A DNA stretch of 64,000 nt from Paracidovorax konjaci (GTDB lineage: Bacteria; Pseudomonadota; Gammaproteobacteria; Burkholderiales; Burkholderiaceae_C), in the NCBI RefSeq assembly GCF_900112675.1, contig NZ_FOMQ01000007.1, positions 162,750 to 226,749 on the forward strand, read 5' to 3'. Position 1 is the first letter of the stretch; each line of letters begins with the position of its first letter. The notes under the pieces are model-generated. The model was not told the DNA's origin. It did no database searches and saw nothing but the letters and a program-made list of their open reading frames with translations. Below, piece after piece: positions 4,043 through 42,530 of this stretch. Both the position numbers and the translations under genes were made by a program.

Positions 4043-4106
4043 GAAGCAAAAGGGGCCGTATGCCGGCGGATTCATTGAATACTTTGCTATTGATAACATA
4101 GCAAAG
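4043..4106 (-). repeat. 65-bp repeat element copy A (reverse orientation) in the hslV–hslU spacer
   Basis: The reverse complement reads TTTGCTATGTTATCAATAGCAAAGTATTCAATGAATCCGCCGGCATACGGCCCCTTTTTGCTTC, the same module order as copies at 8716, 13940, 34796 and 40632. Confidence 0.8.
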
Positions 4107-8572: not shown

Positions 8573-8715
8573 GGGGGTCTTTCAGGAAGGAAACATCGCC
8601 GCGGCGCGGGACCGGAGAGCGGCGCGGGCCGGGCTCCGGGGAGGTCTCTTCAAAGTTTAGCGATCGTGTCAAGCCCCGCGCCGGGTGCGGAATTCGGGCG
8701 CCCGGCGGGTTTTGG

Positions 8716-8780
8716 TTTGCTATTAAATATATAGCAAACTATTGAATGGATACGGCGGCATGGAGCATATTTCATGCAGC
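8716..8780 (+). repeat. 65-bp repeat element copy B (forward orientation) between rlmI and the COG0523 gene
   Basis: TTTGCTATTAAATATATAGCAAACTATTGAATGGATACGGCGGCATGGAGCATATTTCATGCAGC. The left module is a perfect 8-bp inverted repeat, TTTGCTAT-N7-ATAGCAAA. Confidence 0.8.
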
Positions 8781-8818
8781 ACATCACTTCCAGCCCCGGC
8801 GTGGCCCGCCGGGGCGCC

Positions 8819-12857: not shown

Positions 12858-13559
12858 TCAGCGCAGGCGCGAGAGGGCCGCGCTGGCCAGCTCGGACATG
12901 CGCACGAGGAAATCGGTGCCCATGGTCGCGTCGAAACGCTTTTCGTCGGGCGAGCCCAGTACCAGCAGTCCGAAGGCCGGCGCATCGCCGTCGAGCGCGC
13001 CTTCGCGCAGCGGCAGCAGTGCCACCGACTGCACCTGGCCGGCGTCCGGCAGCCAGCCCGCGGGCTCGAAGCCGAGGTTGGGGCCGCAGAACGGCTGGGT
13101 GAGCGACGTGGCGAAGGAGCGCGCATCGGCGCTCGCGCCCTGGGCGAACGGCGCCCCGGCGTACTGCGGCGACAGGTCCCAGAGGCGCAGCGCGGCCTGC
13201 GGCACGTCGAAGAGGCGGCGGATGCCCTGCTCCACGCGGTGGGGCAGCATGGCCGGATCGGTGGCCTGGGCGAGTTCGCGCGTCCAGTGGTGGATCTTCT
13301 GCGCGATGGCGGTGTTCTCGTGGCTGTGGCGCACCATTTCCATGATGCGCTGCTCCAGCCCCTTGATCTTCTCGCGCAGCATCTCGGCCTGGCGCTCCTG
13401 CAGGCTCACGGCGCGCTGGCCGTGCGGGCTGGTCAGGGTCACGCCGGTCAGCAGCTCGGCATGGCGCTCGAAGAAGCCCGGGGTGTTGGCGAGGAATTCG
13501 GCGATGTCGTCCTCGGTGATGGGCGGCACGGCGTGGGCGGGGGAATGCGGTGTGGTCAT
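12858..13559 (-). CDS. DUF484 family protein (YigA-like)
   Basis: 233 aa. Lies between dapF and xerC, as in the enterobacterial dapF–yigA–xerC arrangement. Confidence 0.75.
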
Positions 13560-14434
13560 GGTGCGTCGGGAATGTCGATCTGGCCTTCGAAGACGGTGGT
13601 GGCCGGCCCGGTCATGAAGACCGGATCGGCGGGGTCCCCGCTCCAGGCGATGGTGAGCAGGCCGCCGCGCGTCTGCACGTCCACGCGCGCATCGAGCAGC
13701 CCCAGGCGGATGCCGGCGGCCACGGCCGCGCAGGCGCCCGTGCCGCAGGCGAGCGTCTCGCCCGCGCCGCGCTCGTACACGCGCAGCCGCACGTGGCCGC
13801 GGTCCACGACCTGCAGGTAGCCGGCGTTCACGCGCTGCGGAAACCGCGGGTGGCCCTCGATGGCGGGGCCGGTGCGCGCGACGGGCGCGGTGTCCACGTC
13901 GTCCACGAGCTGCACGGCGTGCGGATTGCCCATGGAGACGATTGCTATGAATATAGGAGCAAACTCTTCAATGGAACCGGCGGCAAGCGGCCATTTTTGC
14001 CCTGAACCCTGGGCCACCGGCTCCAGGCCCGAGGCATCGAAGGGCAGGTCCTCGGGCGCGAAGCGCGGGCGCCCCATGTCCACGGTGACGCGGCCGTCCT
14101 CCGTGAGGCGGGGGGCGATCACGCCGGCCAGCGTCTGCACGCGGATGGTGTCCTTGGCGGTGAGGCCCTTGTCGCGCACGTAGCGCGCGAAGCACCGCGC
14201 GCCGTTGCCGCACTGCTCCACCTCGCCGCCGTCGGCGTTGTGGATCACGTATTCGAAATCGATGCCTTCGGTGGGCGATGGCCGCACGGTCAGGATCTGG
14301 TCGGCGCCGACGCCGAAGTGGCGGTCGGCCAGGAAGCGGTACTGCGCGGGCGTGAGGCCCAGGCGGTGCTGCGTTTCGTCGAGCACGACGAAATCGTTGC
14401 CCGCGCCCTGCATCTTGGTGAAGCGGATCTGCAT
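13556..14434 (-). CDS. dapF: Diaminopimelate epimerase DapF, carrying an in-frame repeat-element insertion
   Basis: [20 protein letters not shown]...CGNGARC...[10 protein letters not shown] includes both catalytic Cys motifs. Start trimmed to 14434. Its stop overlaps the DUF484 start (ATGA). Confidence 0.9.
13940..14003 (+). repeat. Repeat element copy C (diverged), lying inside the dapF reading frame
   Basis: GATTGCTATGAATATAGGAGCAAACTCTTCAATGGAACCGGCGGCAAGCGGCCATTTTTGCCC aligns along its whole length with copies B and D. On the minus strand it is translated as ...[20 protein letters not shown]... immediately before the conserved VSMGNPH motif. Confidence 0.75.
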
Positions 14435-16693: not shown

Positions 16694-16837
16694 GGAAACT
16701 CCGATGAGTCGCTCCAGCGCTTGGACGGGACACCGTCTACCCTCGCGGGACGGGAGGCTGTTTTCCCGGATAGGCGGATTCTAGTGCGCCCCGGCACGGC
16801 CTCACCAGCCCTCATCCCCCTTCCGGATGCCGCTGCC

Positions 16838-25127: not shown

Positions 25128-25474
25128 CCAAAGTGTGAAGCGCGCCGATAAGCCGGATTCTGTGCATGCGGTCGCCCGCATGTGACCGCCATTACTCTGG
25201 GCCGGGGGTCGCCCACCCGGCTCGATGCTACCTACCCGCCAGCTCCGCGGAACCACGTCAACGCTGGCCTACTTGGTATTGCTGCGCGTAGAGATTGCCC
25301 GTTTCACCCCGGCTGGTCTACCTTGCGGTACTCCCGCCGGACTCGTCTCTGTTGCTCTGATCCTCACCTCGCGGTGGACAGCCGTTAGCTGCTACGCCGT
25401 CCTGTGCAGTCCGGACGTTCCTCCAGTGCCTGGTTTCCCAGATCGCACCAGCGGCGGTCTGGCGCGCTTCACGG
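25128..25474 (-). ncRNA. rnpB: RNase P RNA (bacterial type A)
   Basis: Reverse complement contains GGAGGAACGTCCGGACTGCACAGG (P4 5' strand region, cf. GGAAAGTCCGGGCT), ...ACAGAATCCGGCTTATCGG... (P4 3' strand) and complementary P1 ends CGTGAAGCGCGCC / GGCGCGCTTCACA. Length is about 347 nt. Confidence 0.8.
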
Positions 25475-31007: not shown

Positions 31008-31110
31008 GCTCCGGTTCGATTCCGGGAAGGCCACTTCTGTAGCTCAGAGGTAGAGCAGCCTTGTGTCCCAAGGCCTGGCGCAGGTTCGACTCCTGCCGGA
31101 AAAACCGACC
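31008..31110 (+). ncRNA. tRNA-like structured RNA in the rtc operon leader (Y-RNA/YrlA-like candidate); not a canonical tRNA
   Basis: D-arm-like TAGCTCAGAGGTAGAGC; anticodon-arm-like GCCTT-GTGTCCC-AAGGC; T-arm-like GCAGG-TTCGACT-CCTGC. A second T-arm-like hairpin TCCGG-TTCGATT-CCGGG lies just upstream. No pairing 7-bp acceptor stem could be found. Confidence 0.45.
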
Positions 31111-33526: not shown

Positions 33527-34774
33527 ATGAACGAACCACAGAACCATCCCTCCGCCCCCTCCCACCAGGTCCACCGCGTCGAAGGCGGCGTGCCCGTGAA
33601 GATGTGGACGCAGGGCGTGCCCGTCGAGGACGAGGCGCGCCAGCAGCTCGAGAACGCCGCGCGCCTGCCCATCGTGTTCAAGCACATCGCGGCCATGCCC
33701 GACGTGCACTACGGCATCGGCGCCACCGTGGGCTCGGTGATCCCGACCTTCAAGGCCATCATCCCGGCCGCCGTGGGCGTGGACATCGGCTGCGGCATGA
33801 TGGCCTGCAAGACCACGCTGCACGCGAACGACCTGCCCGACAACCTGGGCCCGCTGCGCTCGGCCATCGAGCGGGCGGTACCGCACGGCAGCAACCCGAA
33901 GCGCCAGGGCCGCGACAAGGGTGCGTGGGACACCCCGCCGGACGAGACCGACCGCGCCTGGGCCGGCCTGAAGGACGAGTTCGACCGCCTCTGCGAGGAC
34001 TATCCGCGCCTGGCGAACACCAACAACCACAAGCACCTGGGCACGCTCGGCACCGGCAACCACTTCATCGAGGTGTGCCTGGACGAGCACGGCGCCGTGT
34101 GGTTCATGCTGCACTCGGGCTCGCGCGGGGTGGGCAACGCCATCGGCACGCACTTCATCGAACTGGCGAAGAAGGATGCCGAACTGCACCAGCGCAACCT
34201 GCCGGACCGCGACCTCGCGTACTTCGAGGAAGGCGCCCGCTACTTCGGCGACTACGTGCGCGCCGTCGGCTGGGCGCAGAAGTTCGCGCGCGCCAACCGC
34301 GAGGTGATGATGCACCGCCTGATCGGCGCCGTGCGCTCGGTGATCGCCAAGCCGTTCGAGACCCACCTCGAAGCGGTGAACTGCCACCACAACTACGTGA
34401 GCCGCGAGACGCATTTCGGCGAAGACGTGCTCGTCACCCGCAAGGGCGCCGTGAGCGCCAAGGCCGGCGAGCTGGGGATCATCCCCGGAAGCATGGGCGC
34501 CAAGAGCTACATCGTGCGCGGCAAGGGCAACCCCGAGAGCTTCATGAGCTGCAGCCACGGCGCAGGCCGCAAGATGAGCCGCACCAAGGCGAAGAAGCTC
34601 TACAGCGTGGCCGACCAGATCGCCGCGACCGAGGGCGTCGAGTGCCGCAAGGATGCCGACGTGATCGACGAGATCCCGATGGCCTACAAGGACATCGACG
34701 CCGTGATGGCGGCCCAGAAGGACCTGGTGGACGTGGTGTACACGCTCAAGCAGGTGGTGTGCGTGAAGGGATAG
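33527..34774 (+). CDS. rtcB: RNA-splicing ligase RtcB (3'-phosphate/2',3'-cyclic phosphate RNA ligase)
   Basis: 416 aa with the hallmark metal/GTP-binding motifs (...GTLGTGNHFIEV..., ...HSGSRGVGN..., ...CHHNY..., ...SHGAGR...). Confidence 0.92.
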   Translation: MNEPQNHPSAPSHQVHRVEGGVPVKMWTQGVPVEDEARQQLENAARLPIVFKHIAAMPDVHYGIGATVGSVIPTFKAIIPAAVGVDIGCGMMACKTTLHANDLPDNLGPLRSAIERAVPHGSNPKRQGRDKGAWDTPPDETDRAWAGLKDEFDRLCEDYPRLANTNNHKHLGTLGTGNHFIEVCLDEHGAVWFMLHSGSRGVGNAIGTHFIELAKKDAELHQRNLPDRDLAYFEEGARYFGDYVRAVGWAQKFARANREVMMHRLIGAVRSVIAKPFETHLEAVNCHHNYVSRETHFGEDVLVTRKGAVSAKAGELGIIPGSMGAKSYIVRGKGNPESFMSCSHGAGRKMSRTKAKKLYSVADQIAATEGVECRKDADVIDEIPMAYKDIDAVMAAQKDLVDVVYTLKQVVCVKG

Positions 34775-34795
34775 ACGGAACGCCTTCCCAGACGT

Positions 34796-34859
34796 TCGCT
34801 ACATATTTAATAGCAAACTATTGAATGAATCCGGCGGCATGAGGCCATTTTTATGCAAC
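34796..34859 (+). repeat. Repeat element copy D (forward, left arm partly missing) between rtcB and rtcA
   Basis: GCTACATATTTAATAGCAAACTATTGAATGAATCCGGCGGCATGAGGCCATTTTTATGCAAC. Its terminal ATGCAAC is the first ATG of the rtcA ORF called in the ORF track (34853). Confidence 0.75.
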
Positions 34860-34903
34860 AACAAGAAGAATTCCCGCGATCGGCGCATCCGATCGCCCCG
34901 GAC

Positions 34904-38188: not shown

Positions 38189-39567
38189 GGCCGGTGCGCC
38201 GCTCCTCCCGGTGGGTGCCGGGCAACCGCTTCGATCTGCTGGAAAACGGCGAGGCGTTCTTCCCCCGCGTGTTCGAGGCGATCGCTGGCGCGCGGCGCGA
38301 GGTGCTGCTGGAGACCTTCATCCTGTTCGACGACAAGATTGGCCAGGGGCTGCACGCCGCGCTGCTGAAGGCCGCGCACAATGGTGCCGAGGTGCACGTG
38401 CTCGTGGACGGCTTCGGTTCGCCCGACCTCTCCGAATCCTTCATCGGCCCGCTGGTGGCGGCGGGCGTGCGCTTTCGCATCTTCGATCCGGGCGGCCTGC
38501 GCCTGTTCGGCCAGCGCCTGAACGTGCTGCGCCGCATGCACCGCAAGATCGTGGTGGTGGACGGCGAAGTCGGCTTCATCGGCGGCATCAACTACTCGGC
38601 CGACCACGTCGCGGATTTCGGGCCCGAGGCCAAGCAGGACTATTCCGTCGAAGTGCGCGGTCCCATAGTGGCGCAGATGCGCGCCTTCGCCCGCAGCGTG
38701 GTCGAGAAGGGCGACAAGGGCCGCCGCACGAACCCGCAGGCGACGACCACCGCCGAACCCGCGCCCGATGCGGCCGGGGCGCCGGCCCCTGATGCCGCGC
38801 AGGCCGGGGCGCCGCGGGCGGCGCGCCGCAAGTGGCCGTTCGGCGCGCGCGCCGCCGATGCGCAGCACCCTGCGGCCGGCCCGGCCGACGCCATCTTCGT
38901 CACGCGCGACAACCATGCGCACACCAACGACATCGAGCGCCACTACCGCGTGGCGCTGCGCGCGGCGCGCGAGCGCGTGGTGATCGCCAATGCGTATTTC
39001 TTCCCGGGCTACCGCTTCATCCGCGAGATGCGCCGCGCCGCGCGCCGCGGCGTCGAGGTGCGGCTGATCCTGCAGGGCCAGCCCGACATGCCGATCGTGC
39101 GCACGGCGGCCAGCATGCTCTACGACCACCTCATCCGCGGCGGCGTGCGCATCTACGAATACTGCGACCGCCCACTGCACGGCAAGGTGGCGCTGGTCGA
39201 CAGCGAATGGTCCACGGTGGGGTCGAGCAACCTCGACCCGCTCAGCCTGTCGCTGAACCTGGAGGCCAACGTGGTCATCCGCGACCGCGCGTTCAACGCC
39301 ACGCTGCACGAGCGCCTGTCGCACCTCATGGACAACAGCTGCCGGCAGGTCGAGCCCACCCCGCCCGGCCGCTGGGACGGGCTGCGCCTGCTGCGCAGCT
39401 ACTGCCTCTTCCACCTGATGCGCTGGTTCCCCGCCTGGGCGGGGTGGCTGCCGCGCCACGAGCCGGAAATCTCCCTGGTGCAGCCCGAGGCCGCCGCCAC
39501 CGCCGCGGCTGCCGGTGCGGCCCCCGTGCCCGGCAGCGACGGCGGCCGCTGGCCTTCTGCCACCTGA
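38185..39567 (+). CDS. clsB: Cardiolipin synthase ClsB (PLD superfamily, two HKD motifs)
   Basis: Strong colinearity with E. coli ClsB (...ILETFI..., [40 protein letters not shown]...). GTG start overlapping the upstream stop (GTGA). Confidence 0.85.
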
Positions 39568-39593: not shown

Positions 39594-40676
39594 ATGTCCT
39601 CCGCCTCGCACGCCCCCGCCCTGCCCGACGAATCTGCCGGCCCGCAGGGCGACGGCACGCCCCCCAGCCGCTGGCAGCGGCTGCGCTCGCAGCGCTGGTG
39701 GCCCTGGGCCATGACGCTGGTCACCGGCGCCTTCGTGGTCTTCGTCGTCGGCCTGCTGGTGCGGCAGGCGCGCACCGTGGACTGGGGCGCCGTGTGGGAG
39801 GCCTTCCTCGCGCTGCCCCCGGCCACGCTGGCCGTGGGCGGTGCGCTGGCGCTCGCGAGCCACGGGCTCTACAGCACCTTCGACCTCTTCGGCCGGCATT
39901 TCACGCGGCACGGCCTGTCCGTGGGGCGCACGGTGGGCATCACGCTCATCGCCTATCCGTTCACGCTGAACCTCGGTTCGATCATCGGCGGAGTGAGCGT
40001 GCGCTACCGCCTCTATTCACGCCAGGGCGTGTCCGTCGGCGCGATCGGGCAGGTGATCGGGCAAAGCATCGTCACCAACTGGCTGGGCTACTTCGTGCTC
40101 GCGGGCGCGGTGTTCTGGGTCTGGTCGCCACGGCTGCCGGAGGGCTGGCACGTGGGCCCCGGCGAGCTGCGCTGGATCGGCACCGCGCTGGCGGCCATCA
40201 CGGTGGCGTACGTCGCCGCCTGCGCGGTCCGGCGCGGCAGGCCCCTGGCCTGGCGGGGGCACGACTTTCCGCTGCCGGGCTGGCGCGTGGCGCTGCTGCA
40301 GGTGGCCGTGTCGTCCGTGAACTGGATGGTGATGGGGGCTGCCGTGTGGGCCCTCACGGGCTACCAGCCGCCCTATGCCGCCGCGCTGGCCACCGTGCTG
40401 CTGGGCGCCGTGGCCGGGCTGATCTCCCGCATCCCGGCGGGCCTGGGCGTGCTGGAGGCCGTGGGCACCGCCGTGCTGTCGGCCTACATGCCCGCCTCCC
40501 AGGCGCTGGCGGCGGTGCTGGCCTACCGCGCCCTCTACTTCTTCGCGCCGCTGGTGCTGGCGGCGCTGGCCTTCGGCGCGGTCGAATGGGCCGGCCGCGG
40601 CGCGCCGGCCCCGGAAACGGACGCCCACAAGGAATCCGATGAAAATCAGCCCCATGCCGCCGGATCCATTCAATAG
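39594..40676 (+). CDS. YbhN-family membrane protein (lysylphosphatidylglycerol-synthase-like TM region, UPF0104)
   Basis: Polytopic membrane protein directly after clsB, as in the E. coli ybhP–clsB–ybhN operon. The last ~15 codons and the stop codon lie inside repeat copy E. Confidence 0.8.
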   Translation: MSSASHAPALPDESAGPQGDGTPPSRWQRLRSQRWWPWAMTLVTGAFVVFVVGLLVRQARTVDWGAVWEAFLALPPATLAVGGALALASHGLYSTFDLFGRHFTRHGLSVGRTVGITLIAYPFTLNLGSIIGGVSVRYRLYSRQGVSVGAIGQVIGQSIVTNWLGYFVLAGAVFWVWSPRLPEGWHVGPGELRWIGTALAAITVAYVAACAVRRGRPLAWRGHDFPLPGWRVALLQVAVSSVNWMVMGAAVWALTGYQPPYAAALATVLLGAVAGLISRIPAGLGVLEAVGTAVLSAYMPASQALAAVLAYRALYFFAPLVLAALAFGAVEWAGRGAPAPETDAHKESDENQPHAAGSIQ

Positions 40677-40697
40677 TTTGCTATAAATAATAGCAAA
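40632..40697 (-). repeat. Repeat element copy E (reverse orientation) overlapping the 3' end of the ybhN-like gene
   Basis: The reverse complement reads TTTGCTATTATTTATAGCAAACTATTGAATGGATCCGGCGGCATGGGGCTGATTTTCATCGGATTC. On the plus strand it encodes ...KESDENQPHAAGSIQ-stop. Confidence 0.8.
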
Positions 40698-40802
40698 CCG
40701 AGCCCTGCGGCCACCCGCATGCGCGGTGACAGCGCGGGGGGCTGCGGCGTATCATCGCGGCCGTTTTCCTGCACCGCCCGATCGACACGGGCCGCACACC
40801 CC

Positions 40803-42530
40803 ATGATCCGCCTCTCCGAAATCAAGCTGCCGCTGGCCGCCCTGCCGGCCGACGGCACGCAGCACCCCGAACCCGCCCTGCGCGCCGCCGCCGCGCGCAT
40901 CCTGGACATCGCCCCCGGCGACATCGCCCGGCTCCAGGTGTTCAAGCGCAGCTTCGACGCGCGCAAGGCCGAACTGCTGGCCGTCTACATCGTCGATCTC
41001 GACCTGCCCGACGCCGCGCAGGCGGCCGCGCTGCTGGCCCGGCACGCCGGCCACCCGCACATCCTGCCCACGCCCGACATGGCCTGGAAGCCGGTCGGCC
41101 AGGCGCCTGCCGGCCTCTCCGAGCGCCCGGTGGTCGTGGGTTTCGGCCCCTGCGGCATCTTCGCCGCACTGGTGCTCGCGCAGATGGGGCTGCGCCCCAT
41201 CGTGCTGGAGCGCGGCCGGGCGGTGCGCGAGCGCACCCAGGACACCTGGGGCCTGTGGCGCCGCCGCGAACTGCAGGCGGAATCGAACGTGCAGTTCGGC
41301 GAAGGCGGGGCCGGAACGTTCAGCGACGGCAAGCTCTACAGCCAGATCAAGGACCCGCGCCACCTGGGCCGCAAGGTGATGCAAGAGTTCGTGCAGGCCG
41401 GCGCGCCGCCGGAGATCCTCTACGCCGCGCACCCCCACATCGGCACCTTCAAGCTCGTGAAGGTGGTGGAGACGCTGCGCGAGCAGATCATCGCCCTGGG
41501 CGGCGAGGTGCGCTTCGGCCAGCGCGTGGTCGATGTGGCGGTGGAGGAAGACGCCGCCGGCCGCCGGCACCTGCGGGGCCTGCGCGTGCTCGACCAGGCG
41601 GCGGGGCAGGAATACGACCTTGCCGCCTCGCAGGCCGTGATCGCGCTGGGCCACAGTGCGCGCGACACCTTCGCGATGCTGTATGCGCGCGGCGTCCACA
41701 TGGAATCCAAGCCGTTCTCGGTGGGCTTTCGCATCGAGCACCCGCAGGGGCTGATCGACCGCGCCCGCTGGGGCCGGCACGCCGGCCATCCGCTGCTGGG
41801 CGCGGCCGACTACAAGCTGGTGCACCACGCGAGCAACGGGCGCGCGGTGTACAGCTTCTGCATGTGCCCGGGCGGCACCGTGGTGGCCGCCACCAGCGAG
41901 CCCGGCCGCGTGGTGACGAACGGCATGAGCCAGTATTCGCGCAACGAGCGCAACGCCAACGCGGGCATGGTGGTGGGCATCGACCCGCGCGATTACCCCT
42001 CCGACCCTGCCGCCTTCGAAGCCGCGCTAGGCGCCACCCACGGGGTCGAATCGCTGCCGGCCGGCGCGGCCCATCCGCTGGCCGGCATCGTGCTGCAGCG
42101 GCAGCTCGAATCCGGCGCCTATGCGCTGGGCGGCGGCGACTACAACGCGCCCGGCCAACTGGTGGGCGACTTCATCGCGGGGCGCGCATCGCAAGGCTTC
42201 GGCGAGGTCGAGCCCTCGTACCGGCCCGGTGTCACGCCCACCGACCTGGCGGCCGCCCTGCCCGGCTACGCCATCGCGGCGCTGCGCGAAGCCTTGCCAG
42301 CCTTCGGCCGCAAGATCCAGGGCTTCGACCGCCACGACGCGGTGCTGACGGGCGTGGAGACGCGCACCTCGTCACCGCTCAAGATCGGCCGGGGCGAGGA
42401 TTTCCAGAGCCTCAACACCGCCGGCCTCTACCCCGCGGGCGAAGGCGCCAGCTACGCGGGCGGCATCCTGTCGGCCGGTGTGGACGGCATTAAGGTGGGC
42501 GAAGCCGTCGCCCGTGCGCTGCTGCAGTGA
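40803..42530 (+). CDS. NAD(P)/FAD-dependent oxidoreductase (COG2509-like, uncharacterised FAD-dependent dehydrogenase)
   Basis: Rossmann motif VVVGFGPCGIFAALVLAQMG...ERG and a C-terminal GEGASYAGGILSAGVDG motif. Confidence 0.8.
   Translation: MIRLSEIKLPLAALPADGTQHPEPALRAAAARILDIAPGDIARLQVFKRSFDARKAELLAVYIVDLDLPDAAQAAALLARHAGHPHILPTPDMAWKPVGQAPAGLSERPVVVGFGPCGIFAALVLAQMGLRPIVLERGRAVRERTQDTWGLWRRRELQAESNVQFGEGGAGTFSDGKLYSQIKDPRHLGRKVMQEFVQAGAPPEILYAAHPHIGTFKLVKVVETLREQIIALGGEVRFGQRVVDVAVEEDAAGRRHLRGLRVLDQAAGQEYDLAASQAVIALGHSARDTFAMLYARGVHMESKPFSVGFRIEHPQGLIDRARWGRHAGHPLLGAADYKLVHHASNGRAVYSFCMCPGGTVVAATSEPGRVVTNGMSQYSRNERNANAGMVVGIDPRDYPSDPAAFEAALGATHGVESLPAGAAHPLAGIVLQRQLESGAYALGGGDYNAPGQLVGDFIAGRASQGFGEVEPSYRPGVTPTDLAAALPGYAIAALREALPAFGRKIQGFDRHDAVLTGVETRTSSPLKIGRGEDFQSLNTAGLYPAGEGASYAGGILSAGVDGIKVGEAVARALLQ

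Follow-up and report, generated by a model that had tools for sequence, protein, structure and literature searches.

A reverse-oriented dispersed repeat encodes the last codons and the stop codon of a YbhN-family membrane protein gene in Paracidovorax konjaci

The stretch of Paracidovorax konjaci DNA analysed here (64 kb of contig NZ_FOMQ01000007.1, referred to as the window) holds five copies, A to E, of an AT-rich repeat of about 60-75 nucleotides (nt), as located by a repeat search and by nhmmer. Copy E lies in reverse orientation at the 3' end of a gene for a YbhN-family membrane protein, and 11 to 16 codons at the end of this gene, together with its stop codon, are encoded by the repeat. 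The DNA read consisted of the window and about 130 kb of related loci. The features at the 3' end of ybhN are the following.

39594..40676, plus strand: YbhN-family (UPF0104, LPG_synthase_TM) gene, 360 amino acids (aa); identified by PF03706, RefSeq identity and synteny
40628..40699, minus strand: repeat copy E, with an uncertain distal boundary (40628-40645); identified by nhmmer, the core pattern and a GC content of 43% versus 70% in the window
40638..40673, plus strand: repeat-encoded codons D349-Q360 (DENQPHAAGSIQ); reverse complement of the repeat, read directly
40674..40676, plus strand: stop codon (TAG) of ybhN, lying within the repeat, with the hairpin stem beginning at its G
40676..40698, no strand assigned: hairpin HP1, GTTTGCTAT-AAATA-ATAGCAAAC, 9 bp, AT-rich; identified by folding, the sole helix supported across copies

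The translation of the open reading frame (ORF) at 39594-40676 is 100% identical to RefSeq WP_092952852.1, "YbhN family protein" of Paracidovorax konjaci. PF03706 scores 54.3 bits (cut-off 33.4) on residues 48-322. The AlphaFold2 model, calculated with the orthologue alignment as input, is that of an all-helical membrane protein with a mean pLDDT (predicted local distance difference test) of 85.9. The profile score and the model bear out the assignment to the YbhN-family membrane proteins, which the initial annotation had made from the letters of the DNA. The GC content at third codon positions (GC3) of ybhN is 0.93, and that of the window as a whole is 70%.

The repeat unit is composed of a TTTGCTAT/ATAGCAAA hairpin and a conserved linear stretch, CTATTGAATGGATCCGGCGGCATG, that follows it. 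In terms of its parts, a 9-bp AT-rich hairpin (GTTTGCTAT-N5-7-ATAGCAAAC) is followed by CTATTGAATGGATCCGGCGGCATG and then by a looser GGCC-A-TTTTT end. The GC content of the copies is 38-52%. A 28-nt degenerate core, AGCAAANTNTTNAATGNANNCGNCGGCA, gave five matches in the window versus none in 100 shuffles. Copy E, read in its own orientation, shows the hairpin and then CTATTGAATGGATCCGGCGGCATGGGGCTGATTTTCATC. It was matched by nhmmer on the minus strand at 40699-40628 (E=2e-20) and at 40699-40625 (E=7e-20), by two models that both had copy E among their sequences. A pairwise comparison, which is independent of any model, gave 46 nt with 87-89% complementarity to copies B and D. A repeat copy had been placed at 40632-40697 by the initial annotation; it is found there, and the nhmmer bounds differ from these positions by a few bases at each end.

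The stem of HP1 is formed by 40676-40684 and 40690-40698, with a folding energy of -9.8 kcal/mol in the sense of the ybhN mRNA. When nine copies were folded together by RNAalifold, this first hairpin alone was supported, and covariation was almost nil. The sequence of the hairpin itself, not merely its pairing, is what is kept. A second hairpin, GCAUGRG...YUYAUGC, was suggested by single folds and was not supported by RNAalifold on the nine copies. The 23-nt hairpin makes up one third of the unit, and the non-palindromic 3' part is conserved equally well.

The ORF of YbhN ends with ...KESDENQPHAAGSIQ-TAG, the final codons being ...AHKESDENQPHAAGSIQ. In the ybhN frame the repeat DNA is read as GAT GAA AAT CAG CCC CAT GCC GCC GGA TCC ATT CAA TAG (40638-40676), so that ENQPHAAGSIQ, codons ~350-360, is repeat-encoded. 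The range in the number of codons comes from the two parts of copy E. The segment conserved in all copies stops at the T-run/CAT (~40638-40645), which corresponds to 11-12 codons, and the looser distal stretch (CTTCCAG-like, to ~40628) brings the number to 15-16. The earlier figure of about 15 codons is therefore acceptable as an upper estimate, and the origin of the TAG stop and of the last codons from a reverse-oriented repeat is confirmed by direct reading of the sequence. In the orientation of copy E, stop codons are present within the element in all three frames (3/3). Since the repeat is AT-rich in a genome of 70% GC and has stops in all three frames, any ORF that enters it in this orientation ends within about 20 codons. 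The C-terminal tryptic peptide of YbhN, after K346, is ESDENQPHAAGSIQ as deduced from the sequence.

It might be supposed that no insertion took place at all: a native tail could resemble the repeat by chance, or the family could have been seeded from the 3' end of ybhN. Nothing specific speaks for this, except that the purine-rich distal 10-15 nt (GAAAAT..) also allow an alignment with the codons of the acidic tail of P. citrulli. Such an origin is hardly compatible with complementarity of 87-89% over 46 nt to copies B and D, with the nhmmer match (E=7e-20, from the model that includes copy E), with the absence of the core pattern from the shuffles, with a segment of 43% GC inside a gene of 70% GC, and with the absence of this segment from orthologues. 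It is extremely improbable and is effectively refuted already.

The orthologues show where the tail is found. The comparison set contained 120 listed homologues and three members of the cluster of the query itself (123). Among the matches listed, the ...NQPHAAGSIQ tail occurs only in P. konjaci, Acidovorax sp. NCPPB 4044 and GBBC 3334 (95% identity). In NCPPB 4044 the tail comes from this repeat copy as well, which there differs by a single substitution and by an indel of 2 nt in the loop. Tail and repeat were found together in the strains at 95% identity alone, and no ybhN orthologue with the konjaci tail encoded by non-repeat DNA was found among the matches listed. At the ybhN 3' end of P. 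citrulli (82% protein identity) and of P0003 the repeat is absent. Their proteins end in unrelated GC-rich tails, ...PSGRSSGKAPGKAAA (longer: ...DESPSGRSSGKAPGKAAA) and ...APSKAPA, each followed directly by the stop. Homology to P. konjaci picks up just past the hairpin (CCGCGAAC... versus CCGAGCCC...) and at a conserved, promoter-like TAT(C/G)AT box.

In NCPPB 2350, which is anthurii-like as judged by DapF, a diverged copy occupies the ybhN site in the same orientation (nhmmer E=8e-7). The junction on the hairpin side, AGCAAAC/CGA, is identical in P. konjaci and NCPPB 2350. The ybhN gene of NCPPB 2350 stops at a TAA about 45 nt earlier, at or beside the far edge of the element. At the ybhN 3' end, P. 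valerianellae and SUPP3434 carry a TGCTA...TAGCA hairpin sequence that is AT-rich and only weakly konjaci-like (nhmmer E ~1e-3). It is read in two frames with different stops, giving the ends ESKRPPAQ and SHQNGLQHNKH. This means that the peptide is not what is conserved.

A larger imperfect palindrome was also observed at the ybhN 3' end of P. valerianellae (L005 4100-4215) and SUPP3434 (L008 11100-11165); its TGCTA...TAGCA hairpin is flanked by CAAAAAGGCC...GTTCC and, on the opposite side, by GGTTCC...GGCCTCTTTC. This palindrome may represent a distinct and longer repeat related to that of konjaci. The tail of P0054, a YbhN homologue from a JGI metagenome, ends in ...KSASSAYPSSASSY, which resembles a translated copy of another AT-rich repeat, one common in Comamonadaceae genomes; if so, repeat-derived YbhN tails may have arisen more than once.

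The Pfam domain of YbhN ends at residue 322, ahead of the region in which the repeat lies. In the AlphaFold2 model, the last helix spans residues 301-334, and residues 335-360 are coil with a pLDDT of ~54 falling to 47. After the invariant E331, the tails of the 123 homologues vary from 5 to 41 aa (median 18) and share no sequence; several end after 5-7 residues. The tail after E331 is 28 aa long in P. konjaci versus 32 aa in P. citrulli. The konjaci tail being the shorter, the change is a replacement with no net extension; of the two possibilities raised in the initial annotation, C-terminal extension or replacement, the second is the one that stood. The part of the konjaci tail that is not repeat (40591-40636, plus strand) differs from that of NCPPB 4044 at 9/46 nt and in 7/15 residues. 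This divergence is ~2.5x that of the third codon positions of the same genes, and the adjoining copy E differs at 1/63 nt. Such fast change fits an unconstrained tail.

These observations are best accounted for by an old repeat insertion that replaced a dispensable YbhN tail and was tolerated as a neutral by-product; a probability of about 0.8 is assigned to this explanation. According to it, an AT-rich hairpin-bearing repeat would have landed in reverse at or in the 3' end of ybhN, probably in an ancestor shared by P. konjaci and the NCPPB 2350 (anthurii-like) lineage and after the split from the P. citrulli lineage. The native tail, variable and hydrophilic, would have been displaced or lost together with its stop. 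The ybhN frame would then have run into the element, as it does in the present sequence, to end where it first meets a stop in frame, at the TAG that adjoins the base of the hairpin. The resulting tail of 11-15 residues, ...(KESD)ENQPHAAGSIQ, is predicted to hang past the last transmembrane helix, in a region that is non-conserved and predicted to be disordered; owing to these two properties the change would have been tolerated. No function would be needed for the repeat-encoded peptide or for copy E.

The other four copies bear on the age of the insertion. Their positions are as follows.

4047-4105, minus strand: repeat copy A, intergenic between co-directional minus-strand genes, in forward orientation; identified by nhmmer, the orthologous site being filled in NCPPB 4044
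8714-8786, plus strand: repeat copy B, between convergent genes; orthologous copies in NCPPB 4044 and, decayed, in NCPPB 2350
13939-14013 (13940-14004 by the model built without copy C), plus strand: repeat copy C, antisense inside dapF (13556-14434, minus strand); identified by nhmmer
34793-34864, plus strand: repeat copy D, intergenic between the co-directional genes rtcB (ends at 34774) and rtcA (ORF from 34853), in forward orientation

In NCPPB 4044, the sites orthologous to those of A, B, C and E are all occupied by a copy; in NCPPB 2350 this holds for B, E and, weakly, C. This lineage has therefore carried the family for a long time, with no trace of recent movement. The alternative is that the 3' end of ybhN is a hot spot, at which the copies of the konjaci group, of NCPPB 2350 and of P. 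valerianellae/SUPP3434 are independent insertions of different subfamily members beside the ybhN stop. The NCPPB 2350 copy is very different outside the hairpin (19/39), the sequence in P. valerianellae and SUPP3434 is only weakly like that of konjaci (E ~1e-3), and P. citrulli has no element though it is as near to P. konjaci as NCPPB 2350 is (YbhN 82% versus 80%); all of this would be expected of repeated insertion. However, P. konjaci and NCPPB 2350 have an identical junction AGCAAAC/CGA and the same orientation of the element. Sites are shared for copies B and C too, and these show a similar decay in NCPPB 2350, in keeping with a single old burst. The DapF identities group P. konjaci, P. 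anthurii and NCPPB 2350 (93%) apart from the next relatives (86-89%). Separate insertions at a hot spot are thus considered unlikely.

A single old insertion followed by neutral drift is also in agreement with the rates of change. Between P. konjaci and NCPPB 4044, the divergence is 4.8% for copy A, 9.5% for copy B, 6.2% for copy C and 1.6% for copy E, or 5.5% for the copies pooled. The third codon positions of ybhN, of the gene for a flavin adenine dinucleotide (FAD)-dependent protein downstream of it and of dapF differ by 5-8%, and the 20.7-kb aligned overlap around dapF differs by 3.9%. The pooled value is close to that of the third positions, and the copies therefore seem to evolve at an about neutral rate. 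Purifying selection on the repeat was rejected on this ground, copy E alone being low, and marginally so.

Several points weigh against an old, neutral replacement. Copy E differs at 1/63 nt where ~4.7 differences are expected (Poisson P ~0.05), and the hairpin stem in NCPPB 2350 is identical at 18/18 positions, the rest of that copy at 19/39. The low divergence and the kept stem give a weak, post hoc hint at constraint, conversion or independent insertions. In addition, the tail is a predicted one, known from the ORF only. The nearest element-free genome, that of P. citrulli, has 82% protein identity and a spacer that aligns ambiguously, and MAFFT gave two different alignments of the ybhN tail region. 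The nearest empty site being too diverged, the exact breakpoint and the number of displaced codons are uncertain.

The first two of these points would be explained if the hairpin at the stop were functional. Copy E would then be a REP-like 3' element (REP, repetitive extragenic palindrome) of the ybhN mRNA that either protects the 3' end of the operon against exonucleases or stalls ribosomes at termination and so tunes the yield of YbhN, with the tail as its price. The stop of ybhN shares the first stem base of the -9.8 kcal/mol hairpin. All 18 stem positions (18/18) are kept in NCPPB 2350, where about 50% of the rest of the copy has diverged, and the 1/63 of copy E compares with 7-8% at third positions of the flanking genes (P. 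konjaci versus NCPPB 4044). Liang and Deutscher (in 2015-2016) are said to have found that REPs of E. coli that lie no more than about 15 nt from a stop codon lower upstream expression via ribosome stalling and trans-translation. REPs are described as lying mostly 3' of coding regions, and many are thought to be RNA elements (PMC3733652). However, the 5' arm of the hairpin at locus B is decayed in both NCPPB 4044 and NCPPB 2350, the pooled divergence of the copies is about neutral, and P. citrulli manages without the element. The hairpin is AT-rich and weak and has no U-tract. Other copies are situated in front of genes, where two genes converge, and within dapF; with such mixed contexts, the family has no uniform cis role. 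A functional hairpin is accordingly a quite improbable explanation.

Replacement of a dispensable tail by an old insertion, which remains the preferred explanation, provides a clean, dated case in which a dispersed non-coding repeat rewrites a gene end, here in a beta-proteobacterium that is free-living, plant-associated and GC-rich. The 10-15 residues at the end of konjaci YbhN are repeat-derived and non-homologous to the tails of its orthologues, which calls for caution in annotation and comparison. Other Paracidovorax proteins probably carry repeat-derived ends too. The finding defines a repeat family and is silent on the function of YbhN; its biological significance is low. That repeat DNA enters coding sequence is already known from REP, ERIC (enterobacterial repetitive intergenic consensus) and RPE (Rickettsia palindromic element) sequences.

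Copy C, inside the essential gene dapF, is more puzzling than the ybhN tail. An nhmmer model built without this copy still finds 13940-14004 (E=1.7e-11), so that the repeat is there, and its reading frame is that of copy E (..AAGSI..). The initial annotation had counted it as another case of an element absorbed into coding sequence. The presence of the repeat in dapF is upheld, and simple absorption is not: DapF has 292 aa in P. konjaci and in nearly all Comamonadaceae, with or without the patch, and this constant length rules out a simple insertion. Only a 15-residue loop between KWPL and VSMGNPH differs, the other sequence being ALDGQASAATLLVAV. The codons of this loop are rare and AT-rich in P. 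konjaci and partly ameliorated in P. anthurii and NCPPB 2350.

When copy D was compared without gaps with the dapF loci of distant Comamonadaceae that are free of the patch (Diaphorobacter, an uncultured relative), its best match anywhere in the locus was in exactly the same register, with 28-30/61 nt identical and z values of 4.4-5.2. It includes a 12-nt exact match, AAAAATGGCCTC, which encodes the conserved QKWP. For copies A, B, C and E, the best match to the patch-free dapF loci was not in that register. From these sequences, the simplest reading would be that a dispersed copy converted a segment of dapF to which it was weakly similar, and perhaps anciently related, without a change in length. 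It could also be that an ancient element was exapted into DapF in the ancestor of the Comamonadaceae and later "refreshed" by conversion, or that the family was seeded from dapF. The wider proposal that the repeat is coding-compatible and exchanges sequence with genes, or that a hairpin is selected at the ybhN stop, is regarded as doubtful.

The relation of the element to known repeats was considered next to its own signals. No sigma-70 promoter or intrinsic-terminator consensus was found inside the element. The terminator scan did not call HP1 on either strand and gave no sites in copies A, B and D; one minus-strand match (40712-40696) overlaps only the proximal end of copy E. An intrinsic terminator is ruled out, HP1 being AT-rich and without a U-tract. 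The terminal inverted match in each copy is at best 7-8/12 nt, which is the level of chance, and no shared or consistent direct repeat that could be a target-site duplication was found at the flanks of the copies, the distal boundary of which is soft. A classical MITE (miniature inverted-repeat transposable element) is ruled out by the absence of terminal inverted repeats in the copies.

No match of the repeats to Rfam (release 15) was obtained at the gathering thresholds, and the best hits near copy E (13 bits, E 0.5-9.5) are noise. The core pattern had no match in viral contigs or, in a strict and a degenerate form, in JGI metagenomes, and blastn of copy B against 72,556 plasmids found nothing. 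A pattern scan of genome contigs gave, among the matches listed, at least one further locus, from P. anthurii. When the repeat translations (five frames, concatenated) were compared with 5.8 billion proteins, 72 candidates with short shared words were obtained, none with E<=10; the peptide queries are short, and this null result says little on how often the repeat is translated. In the literature searched on MITE or REP sequences of Acidovorax or Comamonadaceae, no paper on this element was found. The description that suits it best is that of a dispersed repeat, REP/MITE-like but unclassified, without an Rfam match and not found in the literature searched.

In common with REP and BIME (bacterial interspersed mosaic element) sequences, the konjaci element is a short hairpin repeat that is mainly intergenic and often 3' of coding regions; its hairpin abuts a stop. 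It differs in that the unit is longer, with ~40 nt of conserved non-palindromic sequence beside the 23-nt hairpin, and in that it is AT-rich in a GC-rich genome. Of the REPs, some are described as overlapping genes or sitting within them, and their hallmark is a GTAG or CGTC tag that is left unpaired at one of the ends (PMC3733652). In the aligned copies, GTAG/CTAC or CGTC/GACG beside the stem is not conserved, CTAC being present only in the 5' arm of copy D. A tagged REP is ruled out by the lack of a GTAG/CGTC tag and by a unit that is more than the palindrome.

In-frame fusions of MITEs, above all the Rickettsia RPEs, have been called "not unusual" in a review (PMC10969869). The konjaci element shares with RPEs that repeat DNA is translated within host proteins, copies C and E using one frame (AAGSI...). 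However, RPEs are ~150 bp long and the konjaci element is much shorter, with two of the five copies touching coding sequence; RPE insertion changes the host protein, whereas the dapF copy leaves the length of the protein unchanged. ERIC and Correia (NEMIS) elements are likewise small non-autonomous repeats that are co-transcribed with their neighbours and can alter gene ends. They have no sequence similarity to the konjaci element, which is without long terminal inverted repeats and has one short hairpin instead of a long imperfect palindrome. A near-consensus motif for IHF (integration host factor) is presumably present in the element (ATTCAATAGTTTG versus WATCAANNNNTTR), and we take this comparison as a lead only.

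The BRE repeats occur in Comamonadaceae including Acidovorax, where they are usually intergenic and sometimes lie on ORF ends or wholly inside coding sequence (Hot et al. 2011; PMC3110155). They are ~90 bp long with 69% GC and are often in tandem, like a variable number tandem repeat (VNTR) (PMC3110155). The konjaci element has 38-52% GC and ~60-75 nt and is never tandem in the DNA read. By the published description, BRE is thus set apart and ruled out on GC content, size and tandem habit.

As for the surroundings of ybhN, this gene is the last of a ybhP-like / clsB-like / ybhN-like cluster. The gene directly upstream, which ends at 39567, is of the phospholipase D (PLD) type and ClsB-like, and an Exo_endo_phos gene lies farther upstream. 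The order PF03372 (Exo_endo_phos), PF13091/PF00614 (PLDc_2), PF03706 is the same in the window and in all orthologous loci. In E. coli the operon order is ybhP-clsB-ybhN, encoding an endonuclease/exonuclease/phosphatase protein, a PLD-type cardiolipin synthase and YbhN, and the order in the window matches this neighbourhood. Two features are located downstream of copy E.

40726..40755, plus strand: sigma-70-like promoter, GTGACA-18-TATCAT, downstream of repeat copy E; identified by consensus match only
40803..42530, plus strand: gene for a FAD-dependent protein (PF21688), downstream of ybhN, with its ATG at 40803; identified by Pfam, a neighbour kept in all orthologous loci

From its position and consensus match, the sigma-70-like promoter probably serves the gene for the FAD-dependent protein. 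The TAT(C/G)AT box is kept in every orthologous spacer between ybhN and this gene. The leader of the FAD gene (40756-40802, plus strand) was compared with the orthologous spacers L001, L003, L004, L005, L008 and L009. The sequence TTTTCC(T/C)GCACCGCCCGAT(C/G)(A/G)CCACGGGCCGCAC...ATG is near-invariant across the species, and the adjoining spacer is unalignable. Ahead of this sequence stand the conserved TAT(C/G)AT box and, at 40740-40762, a hairpin that resembles a terminator; the sequence may be a regulatory element or a conserved 5' leader.

Three further observations concern RNA genes and elements elsewhere in the window. A weak match to the tRNA model (38.3 bits; 31033-31104, plus strand) is situated upstream of a cluster of the rtc RNA repair type. 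The orthologous locus of SUPP3434 encodes RtcR, a Ro60/TROVE protein, RtcB, RlaP and RtcA. Operons of this kind contain Y-RNA-like (YrlA) RNAs that have a tRNA-like module, and the match at 31033-31104 may be one of them. Rfam identified the bacterial RNase P class A RNA at 25133-25470 (minus strand, 199.9 bits) and the chrB-b cis-regulatory RNA at 16714-16769 (minus strand, 41.6 bits), the latter adjoining a chromate transporter gene.

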